A stretch of 24,000 bases of DNA, taken from positions 2,721,202 through 2,745,201 of the forward strand of contig CP070768.1 of NCBI GenBank assembly GCA_020345745.1, read 5' to 3'. This document shows positions 286 through 22,129 of the stretch, piece by piece (the stretch's first letter is position 1; the number at the start of each line of letters is the position of its first letter). The stretch comes from Desulfobacterales bacterium. Its GTDB lineage: Bacteria > Desulfobacterota > Desulfobacteria > Desulfobacterales > UBA11574. Under the pieces are notes generated by a model, which did not search any database, was not told the DNA's origin, and saw nothing but the letters and a program-made list of their open reading frames with translations. A program made the translations under genes and the position numbers.

Positions 286-3200
286 CTACTCGGCATTCGG
301 TCCTACAATCAAACATGGGCTCTGTTCATCCTTATCGTCCATTACCACATACCACAAATATCCCAATGCGCGGGCGGGCAGAAATACATACGGCAGCAAT
401 ATTTCACCAGCCAACCTTGCAGCCTCTTTGAATGGCATTTTTCTTATGGAAGGATTGACAAGCGATCCATGGATAGATATGGCTGAGCTGAGTTCGGGGA
501 TACCCTTTTTGGGCGTTGGTCGCAGAACAATATCCAGGGTCTCGGATGCCAGGTCTACAGACCCTCCCCCTCTGGTTCTGACATTGGGCGTGTCATAGTA
601 GATGGCTTGACTTTTTCCAACACCCTCCGCAAAGGTGAATTTAAGCACCAGACAGTTTAGATCCTGATAATCCTTTAGCTTGGGCAGGCCCGTTATCACA
701 TCAAAAGCATCTGCGGTGAGCATTTCAACATCTCGTTTGATTCGTCCGTTTTCGACGGCAACGCCAAGCTCACCTTCGAGTGATGAAGCCATTTCATGAA
801 AAGAATTCCCGGCACCATGCAAGTCAACCGCTAGATTCAACTGGCCGCCCAATATTATGGGTTTGTGAGCATAGGCTAAAAAAGCATCGACATTTAAATC
901 TTCAGCACTGGCTTTTAATGTGACCTCAGGTTTGGACTCGCTGGTTTTCAAGGTGGACTCAATTGATATGTCCCCTCCTGCATAGCCAATCTTGGCAGGG
1001 CTGATACGAAGCTGTCCATCACTTAATGACAAGCCAAAGTCAAGATGGTTCATTGCAAAACGTTTTCCCATTACTTTATCCGCATCAATGTTGAGAGAAA
1101 GATCAATGGCTTTAAATAGATTGAAGGACAACGGTTCTTTGCTAAATAACCGACCTGAACCTGGACGGGCCACTTTTTTCTTGTCGGTCTCTGCAATCGA
1201 TTCGTCAGGAAAAATACCCAGGTCCGACAAATAGACATTAGGGGAATACACGTTTAGGCTCAGATAGGGTTTATGATTTTGAACAGAACGATGGGCTTTT
1301 GTATTAAAAATGGTGTTGCCAAAACTAACCTCACCTGCAAACCCGGCTTTTTCCCCTAAATTGAATCGGCCGTTGGCTGTTAGAGGACTGAACGACGGCA
1401 AGGAAATTCCCAACATCGATTCAAATACAGCTGGATCCTTTGCATCAGCTGAAATTTGCACATCCATGGTGTAAGATCCGTCCCGCTTTTTTACCAGGCC
1501 ATTGGCCTTCAAGGATAACGGTTGTTGGTCATCTGTTTTAATATCCATGGCGTCAATGCGGATATGATCGGACTCAAGGACAAATGCCAGCCGCCCAAGC
1601 AGTTTGTGGTTATTCAATACCGGTCGATGGATCAGCCTTTTCACCCATGGTAATGTCTGAATCTCAAATTTTGCGCTTACCTTTACCTTTTCTTCTATGG
1701 TGGCACCATGAATATCTCCTTGCATAAGAAGAGCGGACGCTTCTTCTTGACCCGCATATAGCATCAATTGTCGAATATCGAGTTCATTATCCCCACCATA
1801 CATTTTTGCTGTCATGCTTAGAGATCCCAGACCCGAAAGGCCCATATCGGCTAACATCGGGATGGCGCTCACATGTGAAAGCGACGCTGTAAGATCAAAA
1901 TCAGCTCCAGACACAGTGACTTTGCCTTGACGCATAATCGAATCGATCTTTCCAGCGGCCTTTAAAAGGAGACCTTCTTCTTTACCAACAGAGAGTTTGA
2001 TGTCAGCAAAATCAAAGTCACCGTCATGATCAACCAGGCGCCATGTTCCTTGCAACGGTCCAAAACCTGGGATAGACACCCCAAAGAATGAACCAAGATC
2101 CGACGTTTCATCGGCATATATTGAACCGTTGATGTTACATTCAGTGATGATCCGACCGCTTGCCACCGGGATTTTACCGATGTCTCCTCGCGCCTCCATG
2201 CGAACAGAGCCCGGCTGACCTGCAGTTATCACAACATTAATCAGCGATAAGGTTTCGGTGGTTCCGGTTACCTGTGCTTCGCCGACCACCGGTCCGATGT
2301 CTGTTAAAAGCCTTGTTCCCAATAATGGCTCGGCAACACCCATGTTTGGAGCGGTCATCCGGATGCGAAAGTCCACATCGCCATGAGGCTGCGGGGATTG
2401 GCTCTGGATTTTCCCCGTGCTTCCGGAAAAGGCTACTTTCAATCCCTTCATATTGGACGTCTGCACATCAACCTCGTTAAATTGCAGCCTGTCGTCCAGG
2501 TAATAGGCGCGAAAACGAGCGGCTACCGCGCCAAGCTCCGGCAAGGGCATATTTAAAGCCGTGGAGAGCAGTATTGTCTTCTCAGCCTGTATCGATACGA
2601 ACAGATCGAGTTCTGAAATGTGCATCCCTTTTTGGGTTGGAATTTGTCCAATACGTCCTTTAGACATTACTTTTAATGGTCCGGATTCATTGATTCCTAT
2701 GGCTAGATCTTCTAGCGAGAGCCGATGCATGGAGCCTATCAGCCGTCCTTTTCCTTGCACCGGACCGATTTCCGGCAACCAATCGAGCAAAAAGCGTTTG
2801 GCAGCATTGGTTGTTGGCGATGTAAGCTGGAGGTCCAAGTCTATTTCTTTAATATTAAAATGGCTTTTTAGATCACCAAGATTTATGCTGCCGAAAGCGC
2901 TCATGGCAAGATCCTGGCTATTAAATCCATTGGCATCAATGTCTTCTAAAATATAGTCAGTTTGTTGTTTACTCAATCGGCATTGAATATCAAGTCGACT
3001 AAAATCCGCCATAATAGACGGCAAAAACAGTTCAATAATATCATTATTCGAGGTTGATCCATTGATAACAATATCAATGCCATCCCCATTGATTATATTT
3101 CTTGCCGAGCCTTTTGCGGTAATTTGTGTATTGGATTCTTTAAAAATGTTGACATACAGATTGGATACCTCAGGTGTTGACATTTTTCCGGTTACGTCCG

Positions 3201-4032
3201 CTATAAACGTCATGCGTCCAAGCCCGGGAGGCTGCACCGTGAAGAGACTCAATGTGTTTGATAGATCGGCAACTTCACCTGAAAGCTGAAGGTCGAGACC
3301 TTCTCCGTGGATAAAATCATCGATCTTTCCAGAAACGTTGAGGTCAAAATTGGCTGTATTCACATTCATCGAAACAGGGAATGGCTGGCGTGAATTGAAA
3401 ATCTGTGCAACGGACCCCAGCCGTCCTTGGATTTTAAATTCTTGAGCATTAACCACCCCTTCGCCGGTGACATCTCGATAACCGCTCTCACCGGTATCAT
3501 CGATCTTCAAATGGCGAAGTCCAATTTTGGCAGTGCTGCCTTTGATCTGGTCTGAAATATTGACGGTGATATTTTGCAAGACAGCATTTTCCAGCACCGG
3601 AATAAACCTGGAAGAAATGCTTTTCTTTTTTCGTGCCCTTGTGGAACGTTTTTGCTGGTCCTCTGCAACCGTTAATAAAAGGGTCACCTCGTCAATCGTC
3701 AATTGTTTGAACAACAGCTTACCCGCGACCAGATGCGCAACACTAAGTTTTAGTTGCAGTTGCCCGATATGATCAATATAGGGCTGTGATCCGCCTCTTC
3801 CGGGTTCGAATCGAACGTCTGAGACAGCCAAATAAGGCTCGGACGACAAAACCAAGGTAAAATCCCCTTGGACGTCCACTTCATATCCAGTAAAATATTC
3901 CACTGTACGTATTGCTATTTTTCGGTAGTCGGCCTCATCCAGTGTCGTCGCAATAAGGGCAATACATAGGAAACATAGAACGACCATACCCGCCAGGAAT
4001 AGAAGAATATATTTTATCTTTCGTTTCATCAC
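286..4032 (-). CDS. AsmA-family outer-membrane biogenesis / lipid-transfer protein. At 1,248 aa it is TamB/YhdP-sized.
   Basis: Long uninterrupted ORF with an N-terminal membrane anchor (KYILLFLAGMVVLCFLCIALIATTL). The body is long, repetitive and beta-rich, and the C-terminus is AsmA-like (GGGSVDLASETLDIVLRPTPKKG...ISIHGSLVNPSI). The first codon at 4032 is GTG, followed immediately by ATG at 4029, so either could be the start. Confidence 0.8.
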   Translation of the reverse strand: MMKRKIKYILLFLAGMVVLCFLCIALIATTLDEADYRKIAIRTVEYFTGYEVDVQGDFTLVLSSEPYLAVSDVRFEPGRGGSQPYIDHIGQLQLKLSVAHLVAGKLLFKQLTIDEVTLLLTVAEDQQKRSTRARKKKSISSRFIPVLENAVLQNITVNISDQIKGSTAKIGLRHLKIDDTGESGYRDVTGEGVVNAQEFKIQGRLGSVAQIFNSRQPFPVSMNVNTANFDLNVSGKIDDFIHGEGLDLQLSGEVADLSNTLSLFTVQPPGLGRMTFIADVTGKMSTPEVSNLYVNIFKESNTQITAKGSARNIINGDGIDIVINGSTSNNDIIELFLPSIMADFSRLDIQCRLSKQQTDYILEDIDANGFNSQDLAMSAFGSINLGDLKSHFNIKEIDLDLQLTSPTTNAAKRFLLDWLPEIGPVQGKGRLIGSMHRLSLEDLAIGINESGPLKVMSKGRIGQIPTQKGMHISELDLFVSIQAEKTILLSTALNMPLPELGAVAARFRAYYLDDRLQFNEVDVQTSNMKGLKVAFSGSTGKIQSQSPQPHGDVDFRIRMTAPNMGVAEPLLGTRLLTDIGPVVGEAQVTGTTETLSLINVVITAGQPGSVRMEARGDIGKIPVASGRIITECNINGSIYADETSDLGSFFGVSIPGFGPLQGTWRLVDHDGDFDFADIKLSVGKEEGLLLKAAGKIDSIMRQGKVTVSGADFDLTASLSHVSAIPMLADMGLSGLGSLSMTAKMYGGDNELDIRQLMLYAGQEEASALLMQGDIHGATIEEKVKVSAKFEIQTLPWVKRLIHRPVLNNHKLLGRLAFVLESDHIRIDAMDIKTDDQQPLSLKANGLVKKRDGSYTMDVQISADAKDPAVFESMLGISLPSFSPLTANGRFNLGEKAGFAGEVSFGNTIFNTKAHRSVQNHKPYLSLNVYSPNVYLSDLGIFPDESIAETDKKKVARPGSGRLFSKEPLSFNLFKAIDLSLNIDADKVMGKRFAMNHLDFGLSLSDGQLRISPAKIGYAGGDISIESTLKTSESKPEVTLKASAEDLNVDAFLAYAHKPIILGGQLNLAVDLHGAGNSFHEMASSLEGELGVAVENGRIKRDVEMLTADAFDVITGLPKLKDYQDLNCLVLKFTFAEGVGKSQAIYYDTPNVRTRGGGSVDLASETLDIVLRPTPKKGIPELSSAISIHGSLVNPSIRKMPFKEAARLAGEILLPYVFLPARALGYLWYVVMDDKDEQSPCLIVGPNAE

Positions 4033-4091
4033 AAATGAACCAATGTCCTAACTTGATCAACAGGATCAGGTGATCCCAAAACACCACGGCG

Positions 4092-4120
4092 ACTATAGCG
4101 CTATAATATTTTGAGTGCAA
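4092..4120 (-). promoter_or_regulatory. Candidate sigma70-type promoter for the asmA-like gene
   Basis: The minus strand reads TTGCAC (4120-4115), a 17-nt spacer, then TATAGT (4097-4092), about 55-60 nt upstream of the start codon. The -10 lies inside a 12-bp palindrome, TATAGCGCTATA (4094-4105). This is sequence pattern only. Confidence 0.35.
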
Positions 4121-4130
4121 TAGAAACATA

Positions 4131-4192
4131 CTTGAAAAGAGGCCGTTGCAAAACGACCTCTTTTACCCAATCTCTATGTCATGCTCAAATTG
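4131..4192 (-). repeat. Copy A of the intergenic repeat family. The central variable segment is replaced by a 13-bp stem-loop (4135-4164).
   Basis: Positions 4161-4193 match 23836-23868 at 29 of 33 positions (hand count). The stem AAAAGAGGCCGTT/AACGACCTCTTTT has one mismatch, a GCAA loop, and is flanked by A- and T-runs. Confidence 0.75.
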
Positions 4193-4279
4193 CTTGAATA
4201 TCTGATTGATATATAATAGAATAACGGTGATTTTATGGCGATGGATACTGCCTGAACACTTACTTGATTTATACATCCC

Positions 4280-4894
4280 ATGGTTAAAACGATGCCATTG
4301 ATCGCCTGTCATGAATGCGACTTGCTGCACCGTGCACGGCCTGTCCCAGAGGAAAGCATAGCCAAATGCCGGCGCTGCGGTGCGGTACTGTATCGCCACA
4401 AACGTAATAGTCTCGATATTACCCTAGCCATGGCTATTGCCGGTTTGATCCTTTTTATTATCTGCAATACCCATCCTTTTCTGGCATTGAAACAAGAGGG
4501 TCTTATACAGGAAACCACAATCATTACCGGAGTCAAGGAGCTGTACAACCAAGGCATGCATGCACTGGCGCTGCTCGTTCTAATTACCAGCGTTGTCGCA
4601 CCCCTTATCCACCTAGCAGGAATGGTGTATGTCTTGCTGCCGCTGAAGTTAAACCGAATGCCCTGGAAGATGCCGGCTACTTTTCGTTTCCTGCAAACCA
4701 TACAGCAATGGACCCTAATGGAAGTTTTTATGTTGGGTATATTGGTCTCCATGGTCAAGCTGAGCAAAACAGCCACCGTTGTTCCGGGTATCGCCCTATA
4801 CTGTTTTTTGGTTCTGATATTCGTTATGGCAGGCACCACTGCATCACTTGATCCGCGAATCATCTGGGAGAAATTGGGACATACGCATGAATAA
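4280..4894 (+). CDS. pqiA: PqiA-family integral membrane protein, N-terminal-half equivalent
   Basis: It has a CxxC...CxxC motif (CHECDLL...CRRCGAVL) followed by several hydrophobic segments consistent with TM helices, typical of one PqiA repeat. It lies first in a pqiA-pqiA-pqiB-pqiC arrangement. An alternative ATG is at 4292. Confidence 0.85.
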   Translation: MVKTMPLIACHECDLLHRARPVPEESIAKCRRCGAVLYRHKRNSLDITLAMAIAGLILFIICNTHPFLALKQEGLIQETTIITGVKELYNQGMHALALLVLITSVVAPLIHLAGMVYVLLPLKLNRMPWKMPATFRFLQTIQQWTLMEVFMLGILVSMVKLSKTATVVPGIALYCFLVLIFVMAGTTASLDPRIIWEKLGHTHE

Positions 4895-5525
4895 CTTATC
4901 CTTAACAGCGGCGAAAGCCGCACTTATGAATTGCCCTCGTTGTGATCTGCTCTCAAAATATAAACATTCTCAACCCATCAAACACGCTGTCTGCCCCCGC
5001 TGCGGGGCTGCCGTGCATTTACGTAAACCCAACAGTATCAACAGAACCTGGGCGTTGATCATCGCTGCTGCTATTTTTTACATCCCAGCCAACATTTTTC
5101 CGATTACATTCGTCACCTCTTTGGGAAAGGTCCAATCCGATACCATCATAAGCGGTGTCATCTACTTCATCAACACGGGCATGTGGCCCATCGCACTGGT
5201 GATTTTCACTGCAAGTATCGTGGTACCGCTATTGAAGCTTTTGGTCCTGTCGTTTCTTTTGGTGTCGATTCAGCGGAAATCCTCATGGCGTCCAGGTGAT
5301 CGCACGCATCTTTTCCGCATAACTGAAGCTGTAGGACGGTGGTCAATGGTCGATATCTATGCCCTCACCATAGTGGTTGCCCTGCTGAAATTGGGCTTTT
5401 TTGCAACGGTTGAGGCCGGACCCGCGGCCGTCTATTTTGCTGCGGTTGTCGTCATCACCATGCTTGCTGCAAAGGTCTTTGATCCAAGACTGACCTGGGA
5501 TGCCATGGAGTCTGAAAATGAATGA
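4887..5525 (+). CDS. pqiA: PqiA-family integral membrane protein, C-terminal-half equivalent
   Basis: It carries a second CxxC...CxxC motif (CPRCDLL...CPRCGAAV) plus hydrophobic TM-like segments. I chose the ATG at 4887 (MNNLSLTAAK...), which overlaps the upstream stop by 8 nt. The ORF track extends it to 4848. Confidence 0.85.
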   Translation: MNNLSLTAAKAALMNCPRCDLLSKYKHSQPIKHAVCPRCGAAVHLRKPNSINRTWALIIAAAIFYIPANIFPITFVTSLGKVQSDTIISGVIYFINTGMWPIALVIFTASIVVPLLKLLVLSFLLVSIQRKSSWRPGDRTHLFRITEAVGRWSMVDIYALTIVVALLKLGFFATVEAGPAAVYFAAVVVITMLAAKVFDPRLTWDAMESENE

Positions 5526-7191
5526 ACCGAACATCGATGAAACGGCGGTACCGGACGTGCCTGACGTCATTGTCCATTCGAAAAAAACCTTTTCTATCGT
5601 TTGGCTGGTCCCGATTGTTGCCGCCATCATCGGCGGCTGGCTGGCCTATAAGGCCATTTCTGAAAAAGGGCCGACCATTACCATTATTTTCAAGTCAGCC
5701 GAGGGGCTAGAAGCCGGTAAGTCGAAAATCAAGTACAAGGATGTCGAAATCGGCCAGGTTGAAGACATCAGTCTAAGCAAAGACCTTTCCGGGGTCATTG
5801 TCACGGCTGTGATGGTAAAACAAGCCGAACAATATTTGACGGAAAATACCCGGTTTTGGATCGTTCGTGCCCGAATCAGTGCATCTGGAGCTTCCGGACT
5901 GGGAACGCTTTTTTCAGGTACCTATATCAGTATCGATCCGGTGCGAGGCGGGACCCCGACTCGCGAATTTAACGGTTTGGAACGTCCTCCGGTGGTAACA
6001 AGAGATTTGCCAGGCCGCCATTTCATGCTCCACGCTGATCGACTGAGCTCGCTGGATATCGGTTCCCCGGTCTATTTCCGCCAAATCAAAGTGGGACAGG
6101 TGGTGGCATACCACATCGATAACGAGGGTAATAGGGTCATGGTCAATGTGTTTGTGCGTGCTCCCTATCACCATTTTGTACGAAAAAATACACGTTTTTG
6201 GAATGCGGGCGGATTGGACATTTCTGTTGATGCCACAGGAATTGAGATAGACACCGAATCATTTGTAACGCTTTTGCTTGGTGGCATTGCCTTTGAAACC
6301 CCTGTCGACTTGGAACCTGGCGATATTGCGGAAGAGGGTGACATGTTTGTCCTATATAGAAACCATGAAAGCATCTATGAAAAGACTTATCTAAAAAAGA
6401 GTTACTGGGTGCTGCATTTCGATGGTTCTGTAAAAGGACTTGCCGTAGGGGCTCCCGTCGATTTCAGGGGTATCAAGATCGGCAGGGTTGCAGATATCCG
6501 GTTGGAATTCCTTATGGCGGATAGTGCTGTTCGAATCCCGGTCTTGATCGAACTTGAGCCCGAAAGGATTGCGGTAACAGGTGAGCAACCGGAAACTATG
6601 GACAGACCCCGACTCATGGACCATCTCGTGAATAAAGGGCTCAGGGCACAGCTTAAAAGAGGAAGCCTGCTCACCGATCAACTATTTATAGAGCTAAACT
6701 TCCACCCCCATGCTCCTGTCCGACGCATCGTGTGGGAAGGGAAATATCCGGAGCTTCCAACCATCCCCTCGCCTTTAGAGGGGATAGCCACCAGCTTAGC
6801 TCAACTTATGGACAGGCTGGAGAATTTTCCTTTGGAACAGATTGGCAACAGCCTGCAAAATACCTTTCGAGGGACCGAGCATTTGGTGACATCGCCAGAA
6901 CTTATAGAATCGATTCATTCGCTCAACAATTCCCTTAAGCAACTAAACACATTTTCATCACGTCTAAATGAAGATATGATCCCTGCGGTCAACTCCACTC
7001 TGGAAAAAACCCAGAAAACATTGACAGAAGCCGAGAACATTCTTCGCTCTGACTCTCGGTTCCGCCACCAACTAAACCACGCACTCACAGAACTGGCCGG
7101 TGCCGCACGATCGGTTCGCCTGCTGGTTGATTATCTTGAACAACATCCCGAAGCCTTGCTCAAAGGAAAGGATCGATCCGATGAGAAATAA
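5518..7191 (+). CDS. pqiB: PqiB / MlaD-family (multi-MCE domain) intermembrane transport protein
   Basis: It has an N-terminal TM segment (FSIVWLVPIVAAIIGGWLAY). Repeated MCE-like segments follow (ITIIFKSAEGLEAGKSKIKYKDVEIGQV; GSPVYFRQIKVGQV; GAPVDFRGIKIGRV), then a long C-terminal helical tail. The ATG at 5518 overlaps the pqiA stop (ATGAATGA). Confidence 0.9.
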   Translation: MNEPNIDETAVPDVPDVIVHSKKTFSIVWLVPIVAAIIGGWLAYKAISEKGPTITIIFKSAEGLEAGKSKIKYKDVEIGQVEDISLSKDLSGVIVTAVMVKQAEQYLTENTRFWIVRARISASGASGLGTLFSGTYISIDPVRGGTPTREFNGLERPPVVTRDLPGRHFMLHADRLSSLDIGSPVYFRQIKVGQVVAYHIDNEGNRVMVNVFVRAPYHHFVRKNTRFWNAGGLDISVDATGIEIDTESFVTLLLGGIAFETPVDLEPGDIAEEGDMFVLYRNHESIYEKTYLKKSYWVLHFDGSVKGLAVGAPVDFRGIKIGRVADIRLEFLMADSAVRIPVLIELEPERIAVTGEQPETMDRPRLMDHLVNKGLRAQLKRGSLLTDQLFIELNFHPHAPVRRIVWEGKYPELPTIPSPLEGIATSLAQLMDRLENFPLEQIGNSLQNTFRGTEHLVTSPELIESIHSLNNSLKQLNTFSSRLNEDMIPAVNSTLEKTQKTLTEAENILRSDSRFRHQLNHALTELAGAARSVRLLVDYLEQHPEALLKGKDRSDEK

Positions 7192-7804
7192 CTACACGAA
7201 TTCATTCATCCTGCATAACAAATGGGTTTTACTAGGCGTTGTTCTGGTGATGTTGATGGGGTGCGGCACCACCCAAACATCGAGGTACTATACCTTGAGT
7301 TCCTTAACCAGCAGTGGCGATGAAATGCAAGTGTTTAGAGACGCATATCGTCTATCCATTGAGGTGGGCCCTGTACACCTTCCAAAATATTTGCAAAGGC
7401 CCCAGATTATTACCCGTCTCAGCCCGAATAAAATCGAGACGGCAGATTTCGACAGATGGGCTGAGCCTTTGGAAGATAACGTCTTAAGGGTTCTGGTTGA
7501 AAACCTTGCCCATCTCCTCTGGGACGACCACATTGCCGTTTTCCCTTGGATAGGTTCGACAGGCGTCAATTACCGTATTTCAGTAAACATCACTCGATTT
7601 GACGGTCAATTGGGAGGGGATATTTTTTTGATGGCTGGATGGGCGATTTATGATAGAGAGACAAACAACATCCTGTTGGAAAGAAGATCCGTCTTAAAGG
7701 AGGCATCCGGTCAGCCGGGTTACAGCGCAATGGTCTCTGCAAAAAGCAGGGCATTGGCGGACCTTAGTCGGGAAATCGCTAATGGGATCCGTTCCATGGA
7801 TTAG
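7181..7804 (+). CDS. pqiC: PqiC/YmbA-like lipoprotein (ABC-type transport auxiliary component)
   Basis: A lipoprotein signal with lipobox (LVMLMGC) is followed by SRYYTL, as in the PqiC family. It sits directly after pqiB and overlaps it by 11 nt. The ORF track starts at 7100, but the ATG at 7181 gives the signal peptide. Confidence 0.8.
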   Translation: MRNNYTNSFILHNKWVLLGVVLVMLMGCGTTQTSRYYTLSSLTSSGDEMQVFRDAYRLSIEVGPVHLPKYLQRPQIITRLSPNKIETADFDRWAEPLEDNVLRVLVENLAHLLWDDHIAVFPWIGSTGVNYRISVNITRFDGQLGGDIFLMAGWAIYDRETNNILLERRSVLKEASGQPGYSAMVSAKSRALADLSREIANGIRSMD

Positions 7805-14738: not shown

Positions 14739-15170
14739 TCAGTCGCTTTTTATCATCTGTACCAGGCTCTTAATGACCGCTGCCTGGACTTGGCTTTCTA
14801 CGATAAATTTCACACCAATACCTTCTGGAGTAACCCGCACCACGTCGCCACTGATTTTGAAAGGTTTCTGGTTGTCGGGAGACATGAAGGTCATGAGGAT
14901 CTGTTGTCCGGGCAAGACATTTTGAGACGTTTTGATAAATACACCCGTATCGCTCACATCTTGTATAAAATCTCTAAAATACCGGTCCTGGACAACATAG
15001 TCGACGCTCATAAAAAAGGTTTTTCGATCATGTTGTCTTCGCTTTCTGTCCTGTCTCCCATCCAACTCATGCAAAAGCACTTCCTGGTTTTCCAATGTCA
15101 TGCGTTTTATTCGCTCAATCAACTGATCCGTAACACTGGCCCCTTTTATTTCTTGATTCTGGCTATTCAT
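14739..15170 (-). CDS. Stand-alone PilZ-domain protein (putative c-di-GMP receptor)
   Basis: It has RxxxR (RQHDR) and DxSxxG (DVSDTG) motifs after an N-terminal segment of about 45 aa. An SD (GGGGA) is present. Confidence 0.8.
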   Translation of the reverse strand: MNSQNQEIKGASVTDQLIERIKRMTLENQEVLLHELDGRQDRKRRQHDRKTFFMSVDYVVQDRYFRDFIQDVSDTGVFIKTSQNVLPGQQILMTFMSPDNQKPFKISGDVVRVTPEGIGVKFIVESQVQAAVIKSLVQMIKSD

Positions 15171-15389
15171 ATTTTCCCCTATAAATAGATAGCTTGTTCC
15201 TTATAGCTGAAGATTATCACCAATATTTGTAACATTATCAGATAGCTAGTCGGTTGTCAATTTTAATCGATAAAATCTTATAACGATTTTACAAAAAAGG
15301 ACTTGAAAGCCCTTTTTCATTATGATACGCGTTTCCTTTGATTTTTACTGCCCTTTATCAAAACAAAACATTGAAAGGAACGGTTTGAA

Positions 15390-15848
15390 ATGACTCCAAA
15401 AAAAGAACTTCAGGTGGCAACGTGGCTGGCTGCTATATTATTGGTTGTAAGTGTTATCTGCTATGCAGCCGCTCCTGTTAAAACACCTGACGAGCCCGTG
15501 CGGAAAATGTTCAAAGTTGTTGCAGGAAACGTTTTATTTGATCACAAAACACACACGTCAGCAACAGGCTATGGGCTCGCCTGTTTTGATTGTCATCATC
15601 ACCCGGAAGATCCGGAGGATGAAAAAGAGGCGCTGGTCGCTTGTGGTCAATGCCATCAGCTCCCCAAAGAAGGAGAACTGTTCCCGCAAAGCTGTTCGGA
15701 ATGCCATGAACCAGAAGATATTGAAGATACAGAGGTAACGAGGCGTTCAGATGCCTTCCATGCGCAATGCGAGGAGTGCCATAAAGACGGTGGTATTGGC
15801 CCAGTAAAAGAGGATGACAGATGTCAGTGGTGTCATTTTATGAAGTAA
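15390..15848 (+). CDS. Membrane-anchored multihaem cytochrome c (c3/class III-like) with five CxxCH motifs
   Basis: There is an N-terminal TM/signal anchor (VATWLAAILLVVSVICYAAA). The CxxCH motifs are CFDCH, CGQCH, CSECH, CEECH and CQWCH. The LFDHKTH motif is typical of c3-type folds. It lies directly upstream of rnfC. Confidence 0.85.
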   Translation: MTPKKELQVATWLAAILLVVSVICYAAAPVKTPDEPVRKMFKVVAGNVLFDHKTHTSATGYGLACFDCHHHPEDPEDEKEALVACGQCHQLPKEGELFPQSCSECHEPEDIEDTEVTRRSDAFHAQCEECHKDGGIGPVKEDDRCQWCHFMK

Positions 15849-15933
15849 CTCATGCTCGTGCAATCACCGGCCGAGAGCGTTACCATCACCTTCATCCATA
15901 ATGCAGAAGAACCTATAATAAAAAGGCTTAACT

Positions 15934-17217
15934 ATGATAAAAAGATCTTTTATCGGTTTTACAAAACCATTGATAGCGTATGACGCCCTGGAATCAGCGC
16001 CACCGGAGCCAAAACAGATTCAAACGCCAAAAAAGATTACGCTTTTTATAGATACACCTTATAATTATAAGGATTCATTGCTGTTGAATATCGGAGACAA
16101 CGTTAAAACGGGGCAGAGGCTTTCTTATTCCGAAGATAACGATGCATACGTCATCGCTTCCGCTACCGGGACCATATCATCCATAACTTCCATCCTCGGT
16201 GATTACGGCAAGTCATATACCGCTGTTACGATTGATACCAACGAAACCGAAGAAATGGATGATCACTTCACTGCGCTGCGAAAAGATCCCACATTCGATA
16301 CTGCCAAAAATTATCTTGACAGCATGCCCGGAAAGCCGTCGTTTAACCGCTTCATAGATAGTGAAAATTCAATCGATACCATTATCATCTGCGGTATGGA
16401 TGCCGATCTATACATAAAAACAAATCAATATATATTGAAAGCCGAATTAGAAGCCATTGCAAACGGCATACGAATTCTAAAGGACATCACTCAGGTTGAC
16501 CATGTTATCATTGCGGTACCTGAGAGCCTGATGCAAGACGCCATTCTACTCGGAACCGAGGTCCGAACCGTAAACACCGAATACCCTGCCGCCCTCCCCC
16601 ATCTGATGGTAAAATCATTTACCGGTCAGGCGGTACCGGTAGGAAAAGATTTTGGAGACATCGGCATCTGTTTTTTCACTGCAGAAGCCGTAGCATCTAT
16701 TGGTAAAACTTTTGCGAACGGAAGCATACCCGTAACCAAGACCTTCACCTTTATTGATAAAAATGAGATCAAAACACTGGTATCGGCAAAGATTGGGACA
16801 ACAGTAAGTGAGATCCTTGATGCATTTGATATCACTCTGGATGAAAAAGACCGTATTATTTTCGGCGGCCCGATGACAGGCTCTGCGATATATTCAGCAG
16901 ATTATCCGATATTACCGGATACGGATGCAATTATTGTTCAGGCCAGAGATAAACTCGACTATATTTCAGATTACCCCTGCATCAACTGCGGCGACTGCGT
17001 CAGATCTTGTCCGGCTAACATCCCGGTTAACATGCTTGTTCGCCTCCTGGAAGCCGGACAGTATGAGGAAGCTTCCGATCAATATGATTTGTACTCCTGT
17101 ATTGAATGCGGTCTATGCAGTTATGTTTGCGTATCAAAAATACCCGTATTTCACTATATCAAGCTGGCCAAATATGAACTTGACCTAACCAGAACAGCGG
17201 AGGCGACGAATGCTTAG
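15934..17217 (+). CDS. rnfC: RnfC-like subunit. It keeps two 4Fe-4S motifs, but the FMN/NADH-binding motifs appear degenerate.
   Basis: It holds the first position in rnfCDGEAB order. GGPMTG is present, as are CINCGDCVRSCP and CIECGLCSYVC. The positions expected to carry G(M)GGAxFPT and NGAECEPY instead read SMPGKPSFN and CGMDADLY. Confidence 0.8.
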   Translation: MIKRSFIGFTKPLIAYDALESAPPEPKQIQTPKKITLFIDTPYNYKDSLLLNIGDNVKTGQRLSYSEDNDAYVIASATGTISSITSILGDYGKSYTAVTIDTNETEEMDDHFTALRKDPTFDTAKNYLDSMPGKPSFNRFIDSENSIDTIIICGMDADLYIKTNQYILKAELEAIANGIRILKDITQVDHVIIAVPESLMQDAILLGTEVRTVNTEYPAALPHLMVKSFTGQAVPVGKDFGDIGICFFTAEAVASIGKTFANGSIPVTKTFTFIDKNEIKTLVSAKIGTTVSEILDAFDITLDEKDRIIFGGPMTGSAIYSADYPILPDTDAIIVQARDKLDYISDYPCINCGDCVRSCPANIPVNMLVRLLEAGQYEEASDQYDLYSCIECGLCSYVCVSKIPVFHYIKLAKYELDLTRTAEATNA

Positions 17218-18169
17218 TCATAAAAAACTCACTGTCTCACATGCGCCTTTCTGGCATGATGGAAGCAGCATATCCGCAAGAAGTTATCATACCATGCTTG
17301 CAACATTACCTGCAGTCCTATTTGGTCTGTTTTCTTACGGATTTCTCGCCTTCGGCGTTGTTTCACTTTCCATTTCCTTTGCCATGATTTGGGAACTGGC
17401 AATTAACAAGGTGACCAAACGATCCATCAGTATTGGAGACGGTAATGCTGCACTGATCGGCCTTATCTTTGCCATGCTGTTGCCGGCAACATCCCCGTGG
17501 TGGCTGGTAATAACCGGAACATTTGTTGCCGTGGTCATCGGAAAACACATATTCGGTGGCATTGGTGCCAATCCCTTCAACCCGGTACTCATTGGACTCG
17601 CCATGCTGATGGTATCCTGGACAGATTTTTTTGATTTCGATCAGGCCCTTTTGAATTATGACTTGGGCTTTGTCATGGTATATCCGCTGGCCGCACTTAA
17701 ACATCTGGGCCCTGCCGGCATTGATGCCTTCAGTACAACGGACCTGTTAATGGGTCAGCAGACCGGCGGTATCGGGGCAACATTTTCTTTAGGTCTTATT
17801 GCAGGCGGCATCTATTTAATGATCAGAGGATTTATTCGCTGGGAAATTTCACTCTCTTTTCTGGCCGGTGTATTTGTCACCGCATTGCTATTTAATTTAA
17901 AAAACCCTGCAATGTATGCTGATCCGCTGTTTCATCTTTTCACCGGTTATACCTTGATCGGAGCCTTTTTCTTGGCACCCGAGGATTCGTCTTCGCCGGT
18001 CAATTTCATTCCGATGCTGATTTACGGCGCCGGAGGCGGCATTATGACCGTCCTGATAAGAAATGCTGGGGCGTATATCGATGGGGTGGTTTTCGCCATT
18101 CTGTTAATGAATATCATCAATCCACTGATAGATAAAATTAGGCCAAAAGCGCTTGGAAAGGTTGTTTAA
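17210..18169 (+). CDS. rnfD: Rnf electron transport complex subunit D
   Basis: This is a polytopic membrane protein with RnfD/NqrB-type blocks (HAPFWHDG, GGIGANPFNP, GYTLIGAFFLAPEDSSSP). It overlaps the rnfC stop by 8 nt. Confidence 0.9.
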   Translation: MLSHKKLTVSHAPFWHDGSSISARSYHTMLATLPAVLFGLFSYGFLAFGVVSLSISFAMIWELAINKVTKRSISIGDGNAALIGLIFAMLLPATSPWWLVITGTFVAVVIGKHIFGGIGANPFNPVLIGLAMLMVSWTDFFDFDQALLNYDLGFVMVYPLAALKHLGPAGIDAFSTTDLLMGQQTGGIGATFSLGLIAGGIYLMIRGFIRWEISLSFLAGVFVTALLFNLKNPAMYADPLFHLFTGYTLIGAFFLAPEDSSSPVNFIPMLIYGAGGGIMTVLIRNAGAYIDGVVFAILLMNIINPLIDKIRPKALGKVV

Positions 18170-18170
18170 T

Positions 18171-18761
18171 ATGCGTGAATTGATCAAAATGGTTATCGTC
18201 CTTACAATTTTGAGCGCCTTCTCGGGAGGTTTGCTGGCCGGTCTTCGAATCAGTACTGCTGCTCAGATCGAAAATCAGCAACTTAAATTCGTAAAAGGCC
18301 CGGCAATAAAAGCCATTCTCGAAGGTGCCGCCAATGATCCCATCGTTGACCGATTCAAGGTAACCGACGGCGATATTGATCGAAGTTTCTTTGTGGGAAA
18401 ATTTAATGGAAAGGCCAACACCGTTGCATTCGAAAGTTTCGGGAAAGGGTACGGTGGTGAGGTGGGTCTCATGGTAGGTGTCGATTTAGACAATGACAAG
18501 ATTATCGGCGTCGGTGTTACGACCCATAGTGAAACGCCCGGCCTGGGAGCCCAAGCAAAAGATGACCCTACATTTGTATCACAATTTAAAGGCTTTGCCA
18601 TCGTGGAACCGGTTAAGGTCACTACAGACGGCGGGAAGATAAATGCCATGAGCGGTGCAACCATTACCTCCCGTGCCGTTTGCTCGGCAGCTACCGACGC
18701 CGGCCAAATATACCAAAAACTAAAACCGCAACTTGCTGAAAAATTAAAGGAATTCGAATAA
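18171..18761 (+). CDS. rnfG: Rnf electron transport complex subunit G (FMN-binding)
   Basis: It has an N-terminal TM anchor and the covalent-FMN motif SGATITSRAV (18651-18680). The ATG at 18171 is 2 nt after the rnfD stop; the ORF track extends it to 18153. Confidence 0.9.
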   Translation: MRELIKMVIVLTILSAFSGGLLAGLRISTAAQIENQQLKFVKGPAIKAILEGAANDPIVDRFKVTDGDIDRSFFVGKFNGKANTVAFESFGKGYGGEVGLMVGVDLDNDKIIGVGVTTHSETPGLGAQAKDDPTFVSQFKGFAIVEPVKVTTDGGKINAMSGATITSRAVCSAATDAGQIYQKLKPQLAEKLKEFE

Positions 18762-18774
18762 AAGGGAGATAAGG

Positions 18775-19368
18775 ATGGCCAAATCTTTCACCCAGGAATT
18801 TGTCAAAGGTCTATGGGAAGAAATACCACCGTTTAGGCTTGTGTTGGGTTTGTGTCCGGTGTTGGGTGTTACCACCACCATGGAAAACGGCATCGGGATG
18901 GGACTTGCCACAACATTTGTTCTGTTATGCTCCAATGTTTTAGTTTCGCTCCTTCGCAACATAATCCCCTCAAAGGTGAGGATCGCCTGCTTTATCATTA
19001 TCATTGCCACCTTTGTCATTGTCGTCGAACTATTGATGCAGGCCTACACCTATCCCCTGTTTCTCAAGCTGGGTGTGTTCATACCCCTGATTGTGGTTAA
19101 TTGTGTTGTTCTGGGACGTGCAGAAGCATTTGCATCTAAAAACAGTCTTTTGCCTTCCATCGCCGATGGTCTTGGAATCGGTATCGGATTCACCCTTTCA
19201 CTTGCCGCATTAGGCGCTCTGCGGGAAATCCTTGGAACTGGCACATTTTACGGCGCTATGGTATTCGGTCCCTTCTTTAAACCGTTTACATTCATGGTTC
19301 AGGCACCGGGTGCCTTTGTTTGCCTGGGGCTTATGCTTTGTGTCATGAACCTTTTTGGAAGCAAATAG
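18775..19368 (+). CDS. rnfE: Rnf electron transport complex subunit E
   Basis: RnfE/NqrD-type blocks are present: GLWEEIPPFRLVLGLCPVLGVTT and IPLIVVNCVVLGRAEAFA. Confidence 0.9.
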   Translation: MAKSFTQEFVKGLWEEIPPFRLVLGLCPVLGVTTTMENGIGMGLATTFVLLCSNVLVSLLRNIIPSKVRIACFIIIIATFVIVVELLMQAYTYPLFLKLGVFIPLIVVNCVVLGRAEAFASKNSLLPSIADGLGIGIGFTLSLAALGALREILGTGTFYGAMVFGPFFKPFTFMVQAPGAFVCLGLMLCVMNLFGSK

Positions 19369-19378
19369 GAGAATATAA

Positions 19379-19951
19379 ATGGGCTACTTTGAAATAATTA
19401 TCAGCACCATCTTTGTTAACAACATCCTGCTTGCACAGTTTTTGGGCAACTGTCCGTTTCTTGGTACATCAAAGAAAATGGAGACCGCTGTCGGCATGTC
19501 ATTTGCGGTGGTTTTTGTGTTGGTTCTGGCAGGTGTTATCACCTGGATGATCTACTATTTTATATTAGCCCCCGCCGGTTTGGTATACCTTCGAACCATT
19601 GCATTCATCCTGGTGATCGCTTCTCTTGTTCAATTTGTTGAAATGTTTTTAAAAAAGAGCATTCCAGCGCTGTACGCTGGACTTGGCATCTTTTTGCCGT
19701 TGATTACCACCAACTGTGCCGTTATGGGTGCTTGCGTTTTAAACGTCGACCAAGAACTTAACTTCATGCAGTCCTTGGTTGCATCTTTTGGCTATGCCGT
19801 AGGTTTTGGTGTCGCGCTTATTCTCTTCGCGGGTATACGCGAACGAATTATGCTGGCCAGGGTTCCAAAACCACTTCAGGATACATCCATCGGACTGGTC
19901 ACAGCAGGTATTATATCCCTCTCCTTTTATGCGTTTAAAGGGATGGTATAG
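19379..19951 (+). CDS. rnfA: Rnf electron transport complex subunit A
   Basis: RnfA/NqrE-type blocks are present: VNNILLAQFLGNCPFLG and LPLITTNCAVMGA. Confidence 0.9.
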   Translation: MGYFEIIISTIFVNNILLAQFLGNCPFLGTSKKMETAVGMSFAVVFVLVLAGVITWMIYYFILAPAGLVYLRTIAFILVIASLVQFVEMFLKKSIPALYAGLGIFLPLITTNCAVMGACVLNVDQELNFMQSLVASFGYAVGFGVALILFAGIRERIMLARVPKPLQDTSIGLVTAGIISLSFYAFKGMV

Positions 19952-19973
19952 GGAATGATTTAAGGAGGTCGTT

Positions 19974-21152
19974 GTGTTTTCAGCTATTTTGTTTATGTTG
20001 GGGCTTGGCGCATTATGCGGTGTTATGCTGAGTGTTGCCTCCAAAGTGTTCTATGTTTATGAAGATCCCCGAATTGCCGAGATTGAGGCAATGACAGCGG
20101 GTGCCAACTGCGGGGGTTGTGGATATGCGGGGTGCGCGGCTGCAGCAGTAGCTGTGGTTGCAGGTGAAGCCCCGCCAAGTATCTGTATTATAGCGGGCCC
20201 CGAAGCGGCTGTCAATATCGCAGGCGTGATGGGTGTTGATCCCGGAACAGCAGAAACCGTGCTTTCCTATAATACCTGCATGGGTGGCCATCGGGCTGAA
20301 ACCAAATTTCATTATATGGGTATCAACAGCTGTCAGGGGCTCGCGATCTTATATGGGGGACAACGCGACTGTCCTGTTGGCTGTCTGGGCTTAGGTGATT
20401 GTGTCAAGGCGTGTGCTTTTGATGCCCTTATAATCGGACCGGATGGTTATCCTGTCGTTGACGAAATCAAATGTGTCGGATGCGGTGCCTGTCTAAAGGT
20501 CTGCCCTAAAGATATTATGGAAATTAAAACCATGTCCCAACGACTGCTTCATCTCAACCAGTACGACGACCGGATTGCGCCCTGTCAGCAAACCTGCCCG
20601 GCTGAAATCGACATCGTCAAATACATATACCAAATTAAACAAGGCGATTACGAAGGCGCCGTAAATACAATAAGAGAGCGAAATCCACTACTGTTATCTT
20701 GTGGCCGGGTTTGCCCGCATCCTTGTGAAGATAAATGCCGCAGGGGAATAGAAGAGGAGTCTATTTCCATCAATCAACTGAAACGGTTTGTGGCCGACTA
20801 TGAAATGAATTCAGGGAAACGGCTGCCCATATCTTGCGCACCTTCCACCGGAAAGAAAGTGGCCGTTATCGGTGGTGGTCCGGCCGGCTTGAGCAACGCA
20901 TTTTTTCTGCGACGCCTCGGCCATGATGTTACCATTTTTGATGCCATGCCAAAACTGGGCGGAATGATCCGTTATGGGATCCCTGAATATCGCCTTCCGA
21001 AAGAGGTTCTGGCCTGGGAAATCCAAGGAATTCTCGATTTGGGAGTAGAACACAAGCCAAACGTGGTGCTGGGACGAGACTTTGACATCGGGTCACTGGT
21101 CGCATCTGGGTTTGATGCGGTATTTCTCGGTATAGGCCCCTGGAAAGATTAA
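19974..21152 (+). CDS. rnfB: RnfB fused to the N-terminal part of a GltD/NfnB-like FAD/NAD(P)H oxidoreductase. It ends at an in-frame TAA.
   Basis: A GTG start follows AAGGAGG. RnfB features are an N-terminal TM, CGGCGYAGC, and the dicluster CPVGCLGLGDCVKAC...CVGCGACLKVCP. The GltD-type Fe-S helical domain follows (PCQQTCP...CGRVCPHPCEDKC) and then the FAD Rossmann motif (KVAVIGGGPAGL). The ORF stops at TAA 21150-21152, in the middle of the domain. Confidence 0.85.
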   Translation: MFSAILFMLGLGALCGVMLSVASKVFYVYEDPRIAEIEAMTAGANCGGCGYAGCAAAAVAVVAGEAPPSICIIAGPEAAVNIAGVMGVDPGTAETVLSYNTCMGGHRAETKFHYMGINSCQGLAILYGGQRDCPVGCLGLGDCVKACAFDALIIGPDGYPVVDEIKCVGCGACLKVCPKDIMEIKTMSQRLLHLNQYDDRIAPCQQTCPAEIDIVKYIYQIKQGDYEGAVNTIRERNPLLLSCGRVCPHPCEDKCRRGIEEESISINQLKRFVADYEMNSGKRLPISCAPSTGKKVAVIGGGPAGLSNAFFLRRLGHDVTIFDAMPKLGGMIRYGIPEYRLPKEVLAWEIQGILDLGVEHKPNVVLGRDFDIGSLVASGFDAVFLGIGPWKD

Positions 21153-21170
21153 AACCTGGGGGTTGAAGGC

Positions 21171-22064
21171 GTGAAATTGAAGGGCAGCTATACGGGAATC
21201 AATTTTCTATCAAGCTTTTCGCTATGGCAACAAGGAGAAACCGCGAAAGATCAACCTTTTGTCGGAAAAAAATGCGTGGTTATCGGCGGTGGTAACACAG
21301 CCATCGACTGTGTCCGGACACTCATTCGCCTGGGTGCTGAAGAGGTATCGATCGTTTATCGCCGAACCCGGAAAGAGATGCCGGCCAATCTGGTTGAAAT
21401 CGAGGCCGCTGAACATGAAGGGGTTCAATTTACCTTTCTAGCGGCACCTACACGGGTCCTAGGAGACGACAATGACAACGTCCTTGGGCTTGAATATCTC
21501 AAAATGGAGCTCGGAGAACCGGATGCCAGCGGACGGCGCCGGCCGGTACCGATCGAGGGCTCTGAAACTGTCATCGACATCGACATGTTGATCACTGCCA
21601 TTGGACAGGGCCCGGATATCTTCTTCAAGGATGAAAGTAAACGACTTGACGAGGATCTGAACATTACGCGATGGAATACCATCGACTGCGAAGATCCTGT
21701 GGCACTCCAGTCAAGCATACCGTATATTTTTACTGGTGGAGACTCTGCTACGGGAGCCGCTTTAGTTGTCGACGCCATCGGCGCCGGCAGAAGGGCCGCT
21801 AGATCGATTCACATGTATCTGACCGGTGAAAAAATAACACCTCCGGACAAAACGCTCTTTCAGGATAACATCCCCGTATCGATTTTTGACTCTGTTGACG
21901 GGTTGGGTAAATCGGAGCGCACAAAGATGCCGGAACTACCCGTGGATGAGCGGATTAAAACCTTTGAGGAAGCAGACCTTGTTATTACAGAGGAAGAAGC
22001 CAAGTATGAATCCAACCGCTGCCTTCAGTGCTGCCTCACGTGCTACAACAAAGACGTCGCCTAA
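21171..22064 (+). CDS. C-terminal part of the same GltD/NfnB-like oxidoreductase (NAD(P)H-binding Rossmann fold plus FAD-binding C-terminus). It is in frame with the upstream ORF.
   Basis: It contains KCVVIGGGNTAIDC, the GEPDASGRRRP loop typical of GltD/NfnB, and IFTGGDSATGAALVVDAIGAGRRAA. It is in the same frame as 19974-21152 and separated from it only by TAA plus 6 sense codons. The start is a putative GTG. Confidence 0.8.
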   Translation: MKLKGSYTGINFLSSFSLWQQGETAKDQPFVGKKCVVIGGGNTAIDCVRTLIRLGAEEVSIVYRRTRKEMPANLVEIEAAEHEGVQFTFLAAPTRVLGDDNDNVLGLEYLKMELGEPDASGRRRPVPIEGSETVIDIDMLITAIGQGPDIFFKDESKRLDEDLNITRWNTIDCEDPVALQSSIPYIFTGGDSATGAALVVDAIGAGRRAARSIHMYLTGEKITPPDKTLFQDNIPVSIFDSVDGLGKSERTKMPELPVDERIKTFEEADLVITEEEAKYESNRCLQCCLTCYNKDVA

Positions 22065-22091: not shown

Positions 22092-22129
22092 ACACCGCAG
22101 AGCCGATAGCGCTCTGCGGTGTTGTGTTT
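22092..22129 (+). terminator. Rho-independent terminator of the cytochrome-rnf operon
   Basis: CACCGCAGAGC (22093-22103) and GCTCTGCGGTG (22111-22121) form a perfect 11-bp GC-rich stem with a 7-nt loop. It is followed by TTGTGTTT and lies 28 nt after the stop codon. Confidence 0.85.

Follow-up and report, generated by a model that had tools for sequence, protein, structure and literature searches.

An Rnf2-type operon of Desulfobacterales with a cytochrome c gene, an RnfB fusion and an in-frame TAA codon

Layout and identity of the operon

We analyzed a 24,000-nucleotide window of contig CP070768.1 from a Desulfobacterales bacterium, in which positions 15390-22064 of the plus strand hold seven tightly packed open reading frames (ORFs) of an rnf operon. 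Assigned from the ORF list and from Pfam and NCBIfam profiles, they encode, in order, a cytochrome c, RnfC, RnfD, RnfG, RnfE, RnfA, and an RnfB that runs on into a GltD-like module (rnfB-gltD; Table 1). A first-pass annotation, made from the window's letters without database searches, had proposed the gene order cytochrome c-rnfC-D-G-E-A-B at the same coordinates, and the ORFs and profiles bear this out. The profile searches it recommended, run with Pfam and NCBIfam, confirmed the domain content of all seven ORFs.

The region is an Rnf2 operon (Desulfobacula toluolica Tol2-type Rnf) of Desulfobacterales, a described type and no new architecture. We assign it so because its domain content and its gene set and order are common to the syntenic locus L081 and about 30 Desulfobacterales genomes, and because the published descriptions agree with it point by point. 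The type was first described by Wöhlbrand et al. in 2016 (Proteomics, doi 10.1002/pmic.201500360), as cited in PMC5109826. In the later accounts, Rnf2 has an RnfB of about 700 amino acids (aa) with a pyridine-nucleotide domain and an RnfC without NADH/flavin mononucleotide (FMN) and SLBB domains (PMC5109826; PMC11887813), and the rnf2 cluster of Desulfococcus multivorans includes a 15-kDa cytochrome (Dörries et al. 2016, PMC5109826). The published accounts place Rnf2 in every Desulfobacteraceae genome, as part of the core genome, describe it as abundantly and constitutively formed in six strains (Science Advances 2025, PMC11887813), and extend the type to Desulfarculus baarsii and Desulfovibrio salexigens (PMC11887813). 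The first-pass annotation had not recognized this combination of genes as described; with the type in print since 2016 and listed in the Desulfobacteraceae core genome, that suggestion falls.

The operon is thus a further member of a described Rnf variant. Its nonsense codon and the loss of the RnfD flavinylation site are the sole items that are specific to the window or possibly new. As modest additions to what is published, we consider this RnfD loss and the fact that, over two clades, a fused RnfB always comes with an altered RnfC.

To place the operon among its relatives, we used a scan of one genome per species, which returned 80 loci. About 30 Desulfobacterales loci carry the cytochrome gene, rnfCDGEA and the fused rnfB in the order of the window, among them Desulfosarcina alkanivorans PL12, Desulfobacula, Desulfatirhabdium and Desulfatibacillum. 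Six loci (L015, L016, L029, L033, L044 and L048) have an alternative order, with the fused rnfB upstream of the cytochrome gene and rnfCDGEA instead of last. A divergent group of six (L036, L038-L041 and L049, including Desulfocarbo indianensis) combines rnfCDGEA with a fused rnfB and has no small cytochrome; its RnfC is 26-28% identical to that of the cytochrome-bearing clade. The co-occurrence for which the first-pass annotation had wanted genomes surveyed is present: all 37 full-length RnfC proteins next to a fused RnfB are altered, and the cytochrome joins them in about 30 loci.

Several observations from the same survey stand apart from this pattern. An orphan copy of the fused gene occurs in five loci. 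The orphan RnfB-NfnL fusions at L008 (5766-7112 and 9013-11055) and L031 (8479-11832) have no rnf genes within 9 kb and adjoin ORFs that join a cyclic-nucleotide-binding-like domain to a thioredoxin-like [2Fe-2S] ferredoxin, domains that we assigned by reading the sequences. Such orphans may represent a second, Rnf-independent use of the module. In two UBP15-type genomes that have no small cytochrome, the fused rnfB is closely followed by an ORF that encodes about 570 aa and 22 CxxCH motifs (L038 11612-13312; L040 11587-13308). The tblastn matches to rnfC and rnfG at L023 (4909-6186 and 7138-7734) and L039 (7113-7700) contain a stop codon; these may be further broken copies or alignments that extend past gene ends.

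Table 1. Features of the rnf operon and its immediate downstream region (window coordinates)
Feature	Coordinates	Strand	Remarks
Small multihaem cytochrome c, 152 aa	15390..15848	+	N-terminal hydrophobic helix; five CxxCH; five extra His
RnfC variant, 427 aa	15934..17217	+	RnfC fold; two [4Fe-4S] motifs kept; FMN/NADH loops replaced
RnfD, 319 aa	17210..18169	+	Pfam NQR2_RnfD_RnfE 301.9 bits
RnfG, about 196-202 aa	18153..18761	+	Start TTG 18153 or ATG 18171; periplasmic FMN subunit
RnfE, 197 aa, membrane subunit	18775..19368	+	Pfam Rnf-Nqr 217 bits; TIGR01948 247 bits, above cutoff
RnfA, 190 aa, membrane subunit	19379..19951	+	Pfam Rnf-Nqr 193 bits; TIGR01943 248.9 bits, above cutoff
RnfB + NfnL/GltD-type module, 696 codons in one frame	19974..22064	+	Fer4_20 + Pyr_redox_2; TAA at codon 393
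TAA nonsense codon (codon 393)	21150..21152	+	In frame within fused rnfB; replaces conserved Tyr
Terminator-like hairpin	22092..22122	+	12-bp stem, 8 GC pairs, T-rich tail; 28 nt past the operon's final stop codon

Cofactor and nucleotide sites of the subunits

The window RnfC retains both of its CxxCxxCxxxC motifs (C349-C359 and C389-C399) and has lost the Nqo1/NuoF-like loops that serve non-covalent FMN and NADH in canonical Rnf. In alignments with the solved proteins 8ahx_C, 7zc6_C and 9eri_C, the loop GxGGAxFP (G(L/M)GGAxFP) is replaced by SMPGKPSF, the loop NGxECEPYLTxD (N(G/A)xECEPYLTxD) by CGMDADLYIKTN, and YPQGAEKQL by YPAALPHLM. On the Complex1_51K profile the protein scored 32.9 bits, compared to 172-192 bits for two solved canonical RnfC controls, and the SLBB profile, which gave 49-52 bits with two canonical RnfC controls, had no match in it. 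In both clades, every one of the 37 full-length RnfC proteins encoded beside a fused RnfB has its FMN/NADH loops replaced. The first-pass annotation had read the protein in this way, as keeping its two 4Fe-4S motifs and not its FMN/NADH loops; the case it named against itself, an intact nucleotide/FMN site, is not what the alignment shows. The 37 of 37 losses, together with the Complex1_51K scores, argue that RnfC is not the nucleotide site of this complex.

The altered RnfC is itself under constraint. Within the Desulfobacterales clade, residues at the replaced loops are invariant (P132-G133, D158-L159, P218 and P222), as are the eight Fe-S cysteines. The ratio of nonsynonymous to synonymous substitution rates (dN/dS) of rnfC is 0.23, the highest in the operon, yet one that indicates purifying selection. 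The protein scored 200.7 bits on the RnfC model TIGR01945, under the cutoff of 245.95, and because of this its NCBI record (UCD89291.1) is named only "4Fe-4S dicluster domain-containing protein." Annotation falls systematically short for RnfC proteins of the Rnf2 type. A pattern YPxGxE was dropped as a criterion for RnfC, since Azotobacter vinelandii has YPMGSA and the motif is not universal.

Loss of the nucleotide and flavin loops raises the possibility that this RnfC has turned into NqrA, which the first-pass annotation had said it resembles. The likeness extends to the lost loops and stops there. The AlphaFold2 model (mean predicted local distance difference test score, 77.8) matched the RnfC folds 8ahx, 9eri and 7zc6 best, with template modeling (TM) scores of 0.63-0.69, followed by NqrA at 0.54-0.57. 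For residues 1-341, the rnfC model gave 113 bits and the best nqrA model 53 bits. Given the retained Fe-S motifs and the better match to RnfC models and folds alike, we rejected the NqrA assignment: the window protein is an RnfC minus its nucleotide and flavin loops.

The fused RnfB brings in a second candidate for the nucleotide site. Its residues 1-200 comprise a transmembrane helix, a PF04060 Fe-S domain and a 2x[4Fe-4S] ferredoxin domain, and match NF005503 and TIGR01944. Residues 200-696 comprise a Fer4_20 domain (two [4Fe-4S] clusters; 81.6 bits), flavin adenine dinucleotide (FAD) and NAD(P)H Rossmann domains, and a C-terminal CxxCCxxC. We found 120 full-length, single-ORF homologues of 660-708 aa and 76-91% identity. 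The first-pass annotation had stated that RnfB continues, without a separate start, into a GltD/NfnB-type module; the frame does continue into Fer4_20, FAD and NAD(P)H domains, but a TAA codon in it was missed, and the gene as written is not intact.

Among solved structures, the fused module is closest to NfnA of Caldicellulosiruptor (9bov_A, E 1e-118, over residues 10-502 of a 510-residue query), Thermococcus NfnA (9n5u_A) and StnC (8oh5_C). NfnB/NfnL proteins follow (4ylf_B, E 8e-101; 5jca_L, E 8e-93), and GltD and dihydropyrimidine dehydrogenase are more distant. In NfnABC, the NfnL-like domain forms one end of an Fe-S wire, where NADPH and FAD are bound and no bifurcation takes place, and the proximal (first) cluster of this domain is ligated by Cys108, Cys147, Cys151 and Lys170 (PMC11829005). 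These four residues align with C208, C247, C251 and K270 of the fused RnfB, which are invariant in the clade. The FAD motif GxGxxG and the second Rossmann segment VIGGGNTAIDC...VYRRTRKEMPA are also conserved, and the NADPH strand VYRRTRKEMPA is nearly identical to LYRRTREEMPA of 9bov_A. Because the best solved relatives are NfnA, StnC and NfnB, the Cys3-Lys ligands align and the NADPH strand is nearly identical, we infer that an NADPH-type input module is wired into the RnfB clusters. The invariant CxxCCxxC (window 22020-22043), which ends the fused protein and lines up with the beginning of the Fe-S domain that comes next in NfnA (9bov_A RCLECGC), could be an extra metal or cluster site.

On the membrane and periplasmic side, RnfD and RnfG differ in what they keep. 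In Acetobacterium woodii, FMN is bound covalently to T156 of RnfD and T185 of RnfG (PMC11889175). The window RnfD retains the riboflavin-site asparagine (N124, equivalent to A. woodii N123), and its counterpart of TVTTATPL reads GFVMVYPL, so that both the covalent-FMN threonine and the recognition motif are gone and Tyr158 (nucleotides 17681-17683) occupies the T156 position in HMMER alignments with 9eri_D and 7zc6_D. Members of the cytochrome-bearing clade have Y, A, H, D or F here, with the sole exception of a Thr in the partial RnfD match of L026, whereas the clade without the small cytochrome has T or S. This distribution is suggestive of a link between the presence of the cytochrome and the loss of the threonine. 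In the accessible sections of the Rnf2 papers we found no mention of the loss; they call the remaining subunits "very similar." The NqrB/RnfD flavinylation site is likewise missing from two-subunit Nqr/Rnf-like complexes, for which a one-way transfer from NAD(P)H to extracytosolic acceptors has been proposed (PMC10979944).

RnfG, in contrast to RnfD, keeps its flavinylation threonine within SGAT (NAMSGATITSRAV, aligned to 8ahx_G and 7zc6_G); MSGATITSRAV aligns with AGATITPRAV and TGATITSKAV of solved RnfG proteins. It scored 255.3 bits on the NCBIfam model NF045876 RnfG_DVU2794 (cutoff 205). We considered this RnfG type as a marker of cytochrome-associated Rnf and rejected it, since the RnfG proteins of loci without the small cytochrome also score 205-212 bits.

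The cytochrome that opens the operon has CxxCH motifs at residues 65, 85, 102, 127 and 145, and its ORF accounts for five of the seven CxxCH motifs found in all six frames of the window. The protein scored 34.2 bits on Pfam Cytochrome_C7 and 46.5 bits, below the cutoff, on the NCBIfam TmcA-like model; its NCBI record, UCD89290.1, reads "cytochrome c3 family protein." Five CxxCH motifs and five further histidines would fit bis-His, c3/c7-like haems. Homologues share the sequence of the N-terminal hydrophobic helix, a conservation that fits a membrane anchor and would also be compatible with a cleaved signal peptide. Homologues upstream of rnfC in about 30 loci have 4, 5, 7 or 8 CxxCH motifs. 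The first-pass description of a membrane-anchored cytochrome with five CxxCH motifs agrees with the motif count and fits the conserved helix.

Proposed electron path, nonsense codon and rival readings

Taken together, these sites suggest a path through the complex that begins at RnfB. NADPH would reduce the FAD of the NfnL/GltD-like module, and single electrons would pass through the two [4Fe-4S] clusters of the module to the RnfB clusters, where ferredoxin may also enter. From there they would reach the RnfA/E center and the covalent FMN of the periplasmic RnfG. In canonical Rnf, the step to the RnfG FMN drives Na+/H+ export, and the direction RnfB to RnfA/E to RnfG is the one coupled to ion export (PMC11889175). 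The RnfG FMN would then reduce the small multihaem cytochrome c, and the electrons would probably continue to Qrc and menaquinone. We favor an exit via RnfG and the cytochrome because the RnfG threonine is kept, the RnfD threonine is lost in the cytochrome clade, and the Methanosarcina Rnf and the two-subunit complexes offer precedents.

The complex is thus most likely an ion-pumping NAD(P)H (and ferredoxin):cytochrome c oxidoreductase. For the reading as a whole, in which an Rnf2-type operon encodes such a complex with Na+-NQR-like wiring and its TAA codon arose very recently or reflects a sequence error, we judge the balance to tip modestly in favor. Two of its elements were anticipated by the first-pass annotation and are published hypotheses for Rnf2. 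The shift of the pyridine-nucleotide site to the RnfB side (PMC5109826, PMC11887813) is consistent with the RnfC loop loss in 37 of 37 proteins and with the NfnL-type NADPH relatives. The cytochrome as a periplasmic entry or exit point is likewise consistent with our data, and the cytochrome c3 of Rnf2 has been proposed as an extra electron exit to Qrc and menaquinone (PMC11887813).

A stricter version may apply to the cytochrome-bearing clade, in which RnfD has lost the threonine and motif for covalent FMN and RnfG has kept its own. Here, the path would end in the periplasm, from the RnfG FMN to the membrane-anchored cytochrome, with no return through RnfD to RnfC; the complex would be a one-way NADPH:cytochrome c pump, rewired in parallel to and independently of Na+-NQR, and the RnfC clusters would have a new or vestigial role. 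We offer this version tentatively and regard it as rather unlikely.

Several points weigh against the oxidoreductase reading. With its invariant Fe-S cysteines, RnfC is probably still on an electron path, one that the model leaves unexplained. Six loci with a fused RnfB have no small cytochrome, so the pair of a fused RnfB and an altered RnfC does not require it. The association of the cytochrome with a missing RnfD threonine comes from two clades, effectively one evolutionary event, and absence of the threonine is not proof of FMN loss, since FMN could be bound non-covalently. Specificity for NADPH rather than NADH is suggested by homology. We searched the literature for a biochemical characterization of any Rnf2 and found none; the mode of action is stated in PMC5109826 to await verification, and proteomic detection there and in PMC11887813 is from cultured strains only. 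The refuting case named by the first-pass annotation, an architecture already characterized as a standard ferredoxin:NAD+ Rnf, is not among these points: the type is described, but not as such an enzyme. Finally, if the TAA codon is real, the complex of this genome has no complete NAD(P)H module.

This last point leads to the rival that survives best, namely that the operon is defective here. On this account the TAA is real, the NAD(P)H/FAD module is truncated past residue 392, and the complex is either non-functional or works with ferredoxin only, via the remaining RnfB clusters; we give this a substantial minority chance. The TAA is present in the assembled sequence, which as written encodes a 392-aa N-terminal fragment and then a possible 297-aa ORF from GTG 21171. 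The codon lies within GAWKDYxL, where 119 of 120 full-length homologues have Tyr and the 91%-identical, syntenic L081 has TAT. The base that follows is A, and TAA with A after it terminates translation efficiently. Conservation reaches at least 98% in 380 columns; the window departs from six of them, four of which lie within residues 389-405 (A389P, Y393*, E400V and C405S). Neither half of the fused gene was found in the protein collection, which does contain the cytochrome (UCD89290.1) and RnfC (UCD89291.1) of the same NCBI contig; this would fit annotation as a pseudogene.

The codons downstream of the TAA tell against long-standing inactivation. No conserved column is violated beyond residue 405, and dN/dS for codons 394-696 relative to L081 is 0.082, the lowest value of the fused gene and near that of the neighboring phosphoglycerate mutase gene. 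Because these 302 codons show no decay, the change from TAT to TAA is either very recent or an assembly or sequence error, and inactivation would be very recent at most. A defective operon is also at odds with the reported place of Rnf2 in the core genome of the family and its constitutive abundance, and it rests on a single metagenome-assembled genome without read support. A search of metagenome contigs for the exact 32-nucleotide context around the stop, with either allele, gave no match. Recoding was rejected as well: the codon is neither TGA nor TAG, so selenocysteine and pyrrolysine are excluded, and nothing pointed to programmed read-through.

The other window genes that we examined look intact, which also speaks against a defective operon. 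We had considered poor assembly in view of two PqiA-domain ORFs (4280-4894 and 4888-5525) that resembled a frameshift, and rejected it: they are separate genes whose stop and start overlap as ATGA at 4888-4894, a natural split with no frameshift. They belong to an envelope lipid-transport cluster at window 286-7804 that comprises an AsmA/YhdP-like giant protein (minus strand), the two PqiA-domain genes, PqiB with three MlaD domains, and PqiC.

A second rival swaps the ends of the complex. It would be a ferredoxin:NADP+ oxidoreductase with NADP(H) bound at the RnfB fusion, ferredoxin docked on the [4Fe-4S] pair of RnfC, and the cytochrome as an accessory. The invariant Fe-S cysteines of RnfC speak for it, and it may fit the six loci without the small cytochrome better, where fused RnfB and altered RnfC occur with the RnfD Thr/Ser kept. 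In the cytochrome-bearing clade, however, RnfD has no covalent-FMN site on the way to RnfC. Judged by the canonical mechanism (PMC11889175), transfer from NADPH to ferredoxin along the ion-export direction would be uphill twice, and transfer from ferredoxin to NADP+ would be downhill with the pump running backwards and would conserve no energy. We therefore consider this rival improbable.

Flavin-based bifurcation, in which the NfnL-like FAD would split the NADPH pair as in NfnSL and send the low-potential electron to the Rnf pump and the high-potential one to, for example, the cytochrome or RnfC, appeals to the homology of the module with NfnB/NfnL of bifurcating NfnSL (4ylf_B, 5jca_L) but is hardly credible, given that the closest relatives (9bov_A, 9n5u_A and 8oh5_C) use the domain as a non-bifurcating NADPH input (PMC11829005), that the operon has no NfnS/NfnA-like FAD + [2Fe-2S] partner, and that the proximal cluster is ligated by Cys3-Lys as in NfnABC.

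If the ion-pumping NAD(P)H (and ferredoxin):cytochrome c oxidoreductase is correct, it has consequences beyond this genome. Much of the carbon oxidation in marine sediments is due to Desulfobacteraceae (PMC11887813). With NADPH and ferredoxin as donors, cytochrome c as acceptor and ion pumping in between, Rnf2 would be a main energy-conserving link from their cytoplasmic catabolism to Qrc, menaquinone and Qmo, and on to sulfate reduction, as well as a second, independent case of an Rnf made into an NQR-like NAD(P)H dehydrogenase.

Upstream of the operon, a PilZ-domain gene on the minus strand (window 14739-15170) is divergent from it, an arrangement conserved in L081. The 219-bp intergenic region between them (15171-15389) presumably holds promoters; a consensus scan gave just a weak match there, on the minus strand.

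Comparison with known systems

The closest known system is the Rnf2/Tol2-type Rnf. The window matches it in the fused RnfB of about 700 aa, an RnfC without NADH/FMN and SLBB signatures, a c3-like cytochrome gene, ordinary RnfDGEA, and the Desulfobacterales lineage. The window copy differs by the in-frame TAA in the fused gene.

With the canonical Rnf of A. woodii (9eri), Clostridium tetanomorphum (7zc6) and A. vinelandii (8ahx), the window shares the six-subunit core, RnfA/E, the flavinylated RnfG threonine, the [4Fe-4S] pair of RnfC and the N-terminal 200 residues of RnfB. Unlike these, it lacks the FMN/NADH site of RnfC and the covalent-FMN threonine of RnfD, and it adds an NADPH/FAD module on RnfB and a cytochrome c gene.

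Multihaem cytochromes accompany rnf genes in other lineages as well. In Desulfovibrio, the multihaem cytochrome gene dhcA adjoins rnf (dhcA-rnfCDGEAB), and the window RnfG falls in the same NCBIfam model, RnfG_DVU2794. The Desulfovibrionaceae complex is set apart by its description as Rnf1 type, with ordinary RnfB and RnfC domains (PMC11887813). The Rnf of Methanosarcina delivers electrons to a multihaem cytochrome that is co-transcribed with it, and it makes no use of NAD(P) (PMC4023990). As in the window, a cytochrome c opens the Rnf/MmcA operon of Methanosarcina acetivorans (MA0658-0665), RnfC has no NAD(P) function, and a route from RnfG to cytochrome c to a membrane carrier has been proposed (PMC4023990). 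There, in contrast, ferredoxin is the donor at an ordinary RnfB, there is no NADPH module, and an extra membrane protein, MA0665, is encoded; all seven genes of the window operon are assigned, and none is an additional, MA0665-like membrane ORF.

For the input side, the nearest comparison is NfnA/StnC of NfnABC/StnABC (9bov, 9n5u and 8oh5). The window module shares with them the Fer4_20 domain with its Cys3-Lys clusters, the FAD site and YRRTRxEMPA, and in those complexes the domain has the role of an NADPH input. In the window it is carried by a membrane-anchored RnfB instead of a formate-dehydrogenase-like domain, and it ends right past the CxxCCxxC, where NfnA continues.

The proposed wiring of the complex as a whole resembles that of Na+-NQR, in which the NADH dehydrogenase NqrF takes the place of RnfB and NqrA is a cofactor-less homologue of RnfC (PMC4014512, PMC11889175). 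By sequence and by fold the window subunits are Rnf, not Nqr, and profile searches of the operon found no ORF or domain of the NqrF type (FNR-like FAD/NADH and [2Fe-2S] domains). The input in the window is of the NfnL/GltD type rather than an FNR-like NqrF, RnfC has kept Fe-S clusters where NqrA has none, and the likely acceptor is cytochrome c instead of NqrB-bound quinone. The logic is the same in both: an NAD(P)H dehydrogenase flavoprotein takes the RnfB/NqrF position, the RnfC/NqrA homologue is blind to nucleotides, and the acceptor has a potential above that of NAD(P)H.

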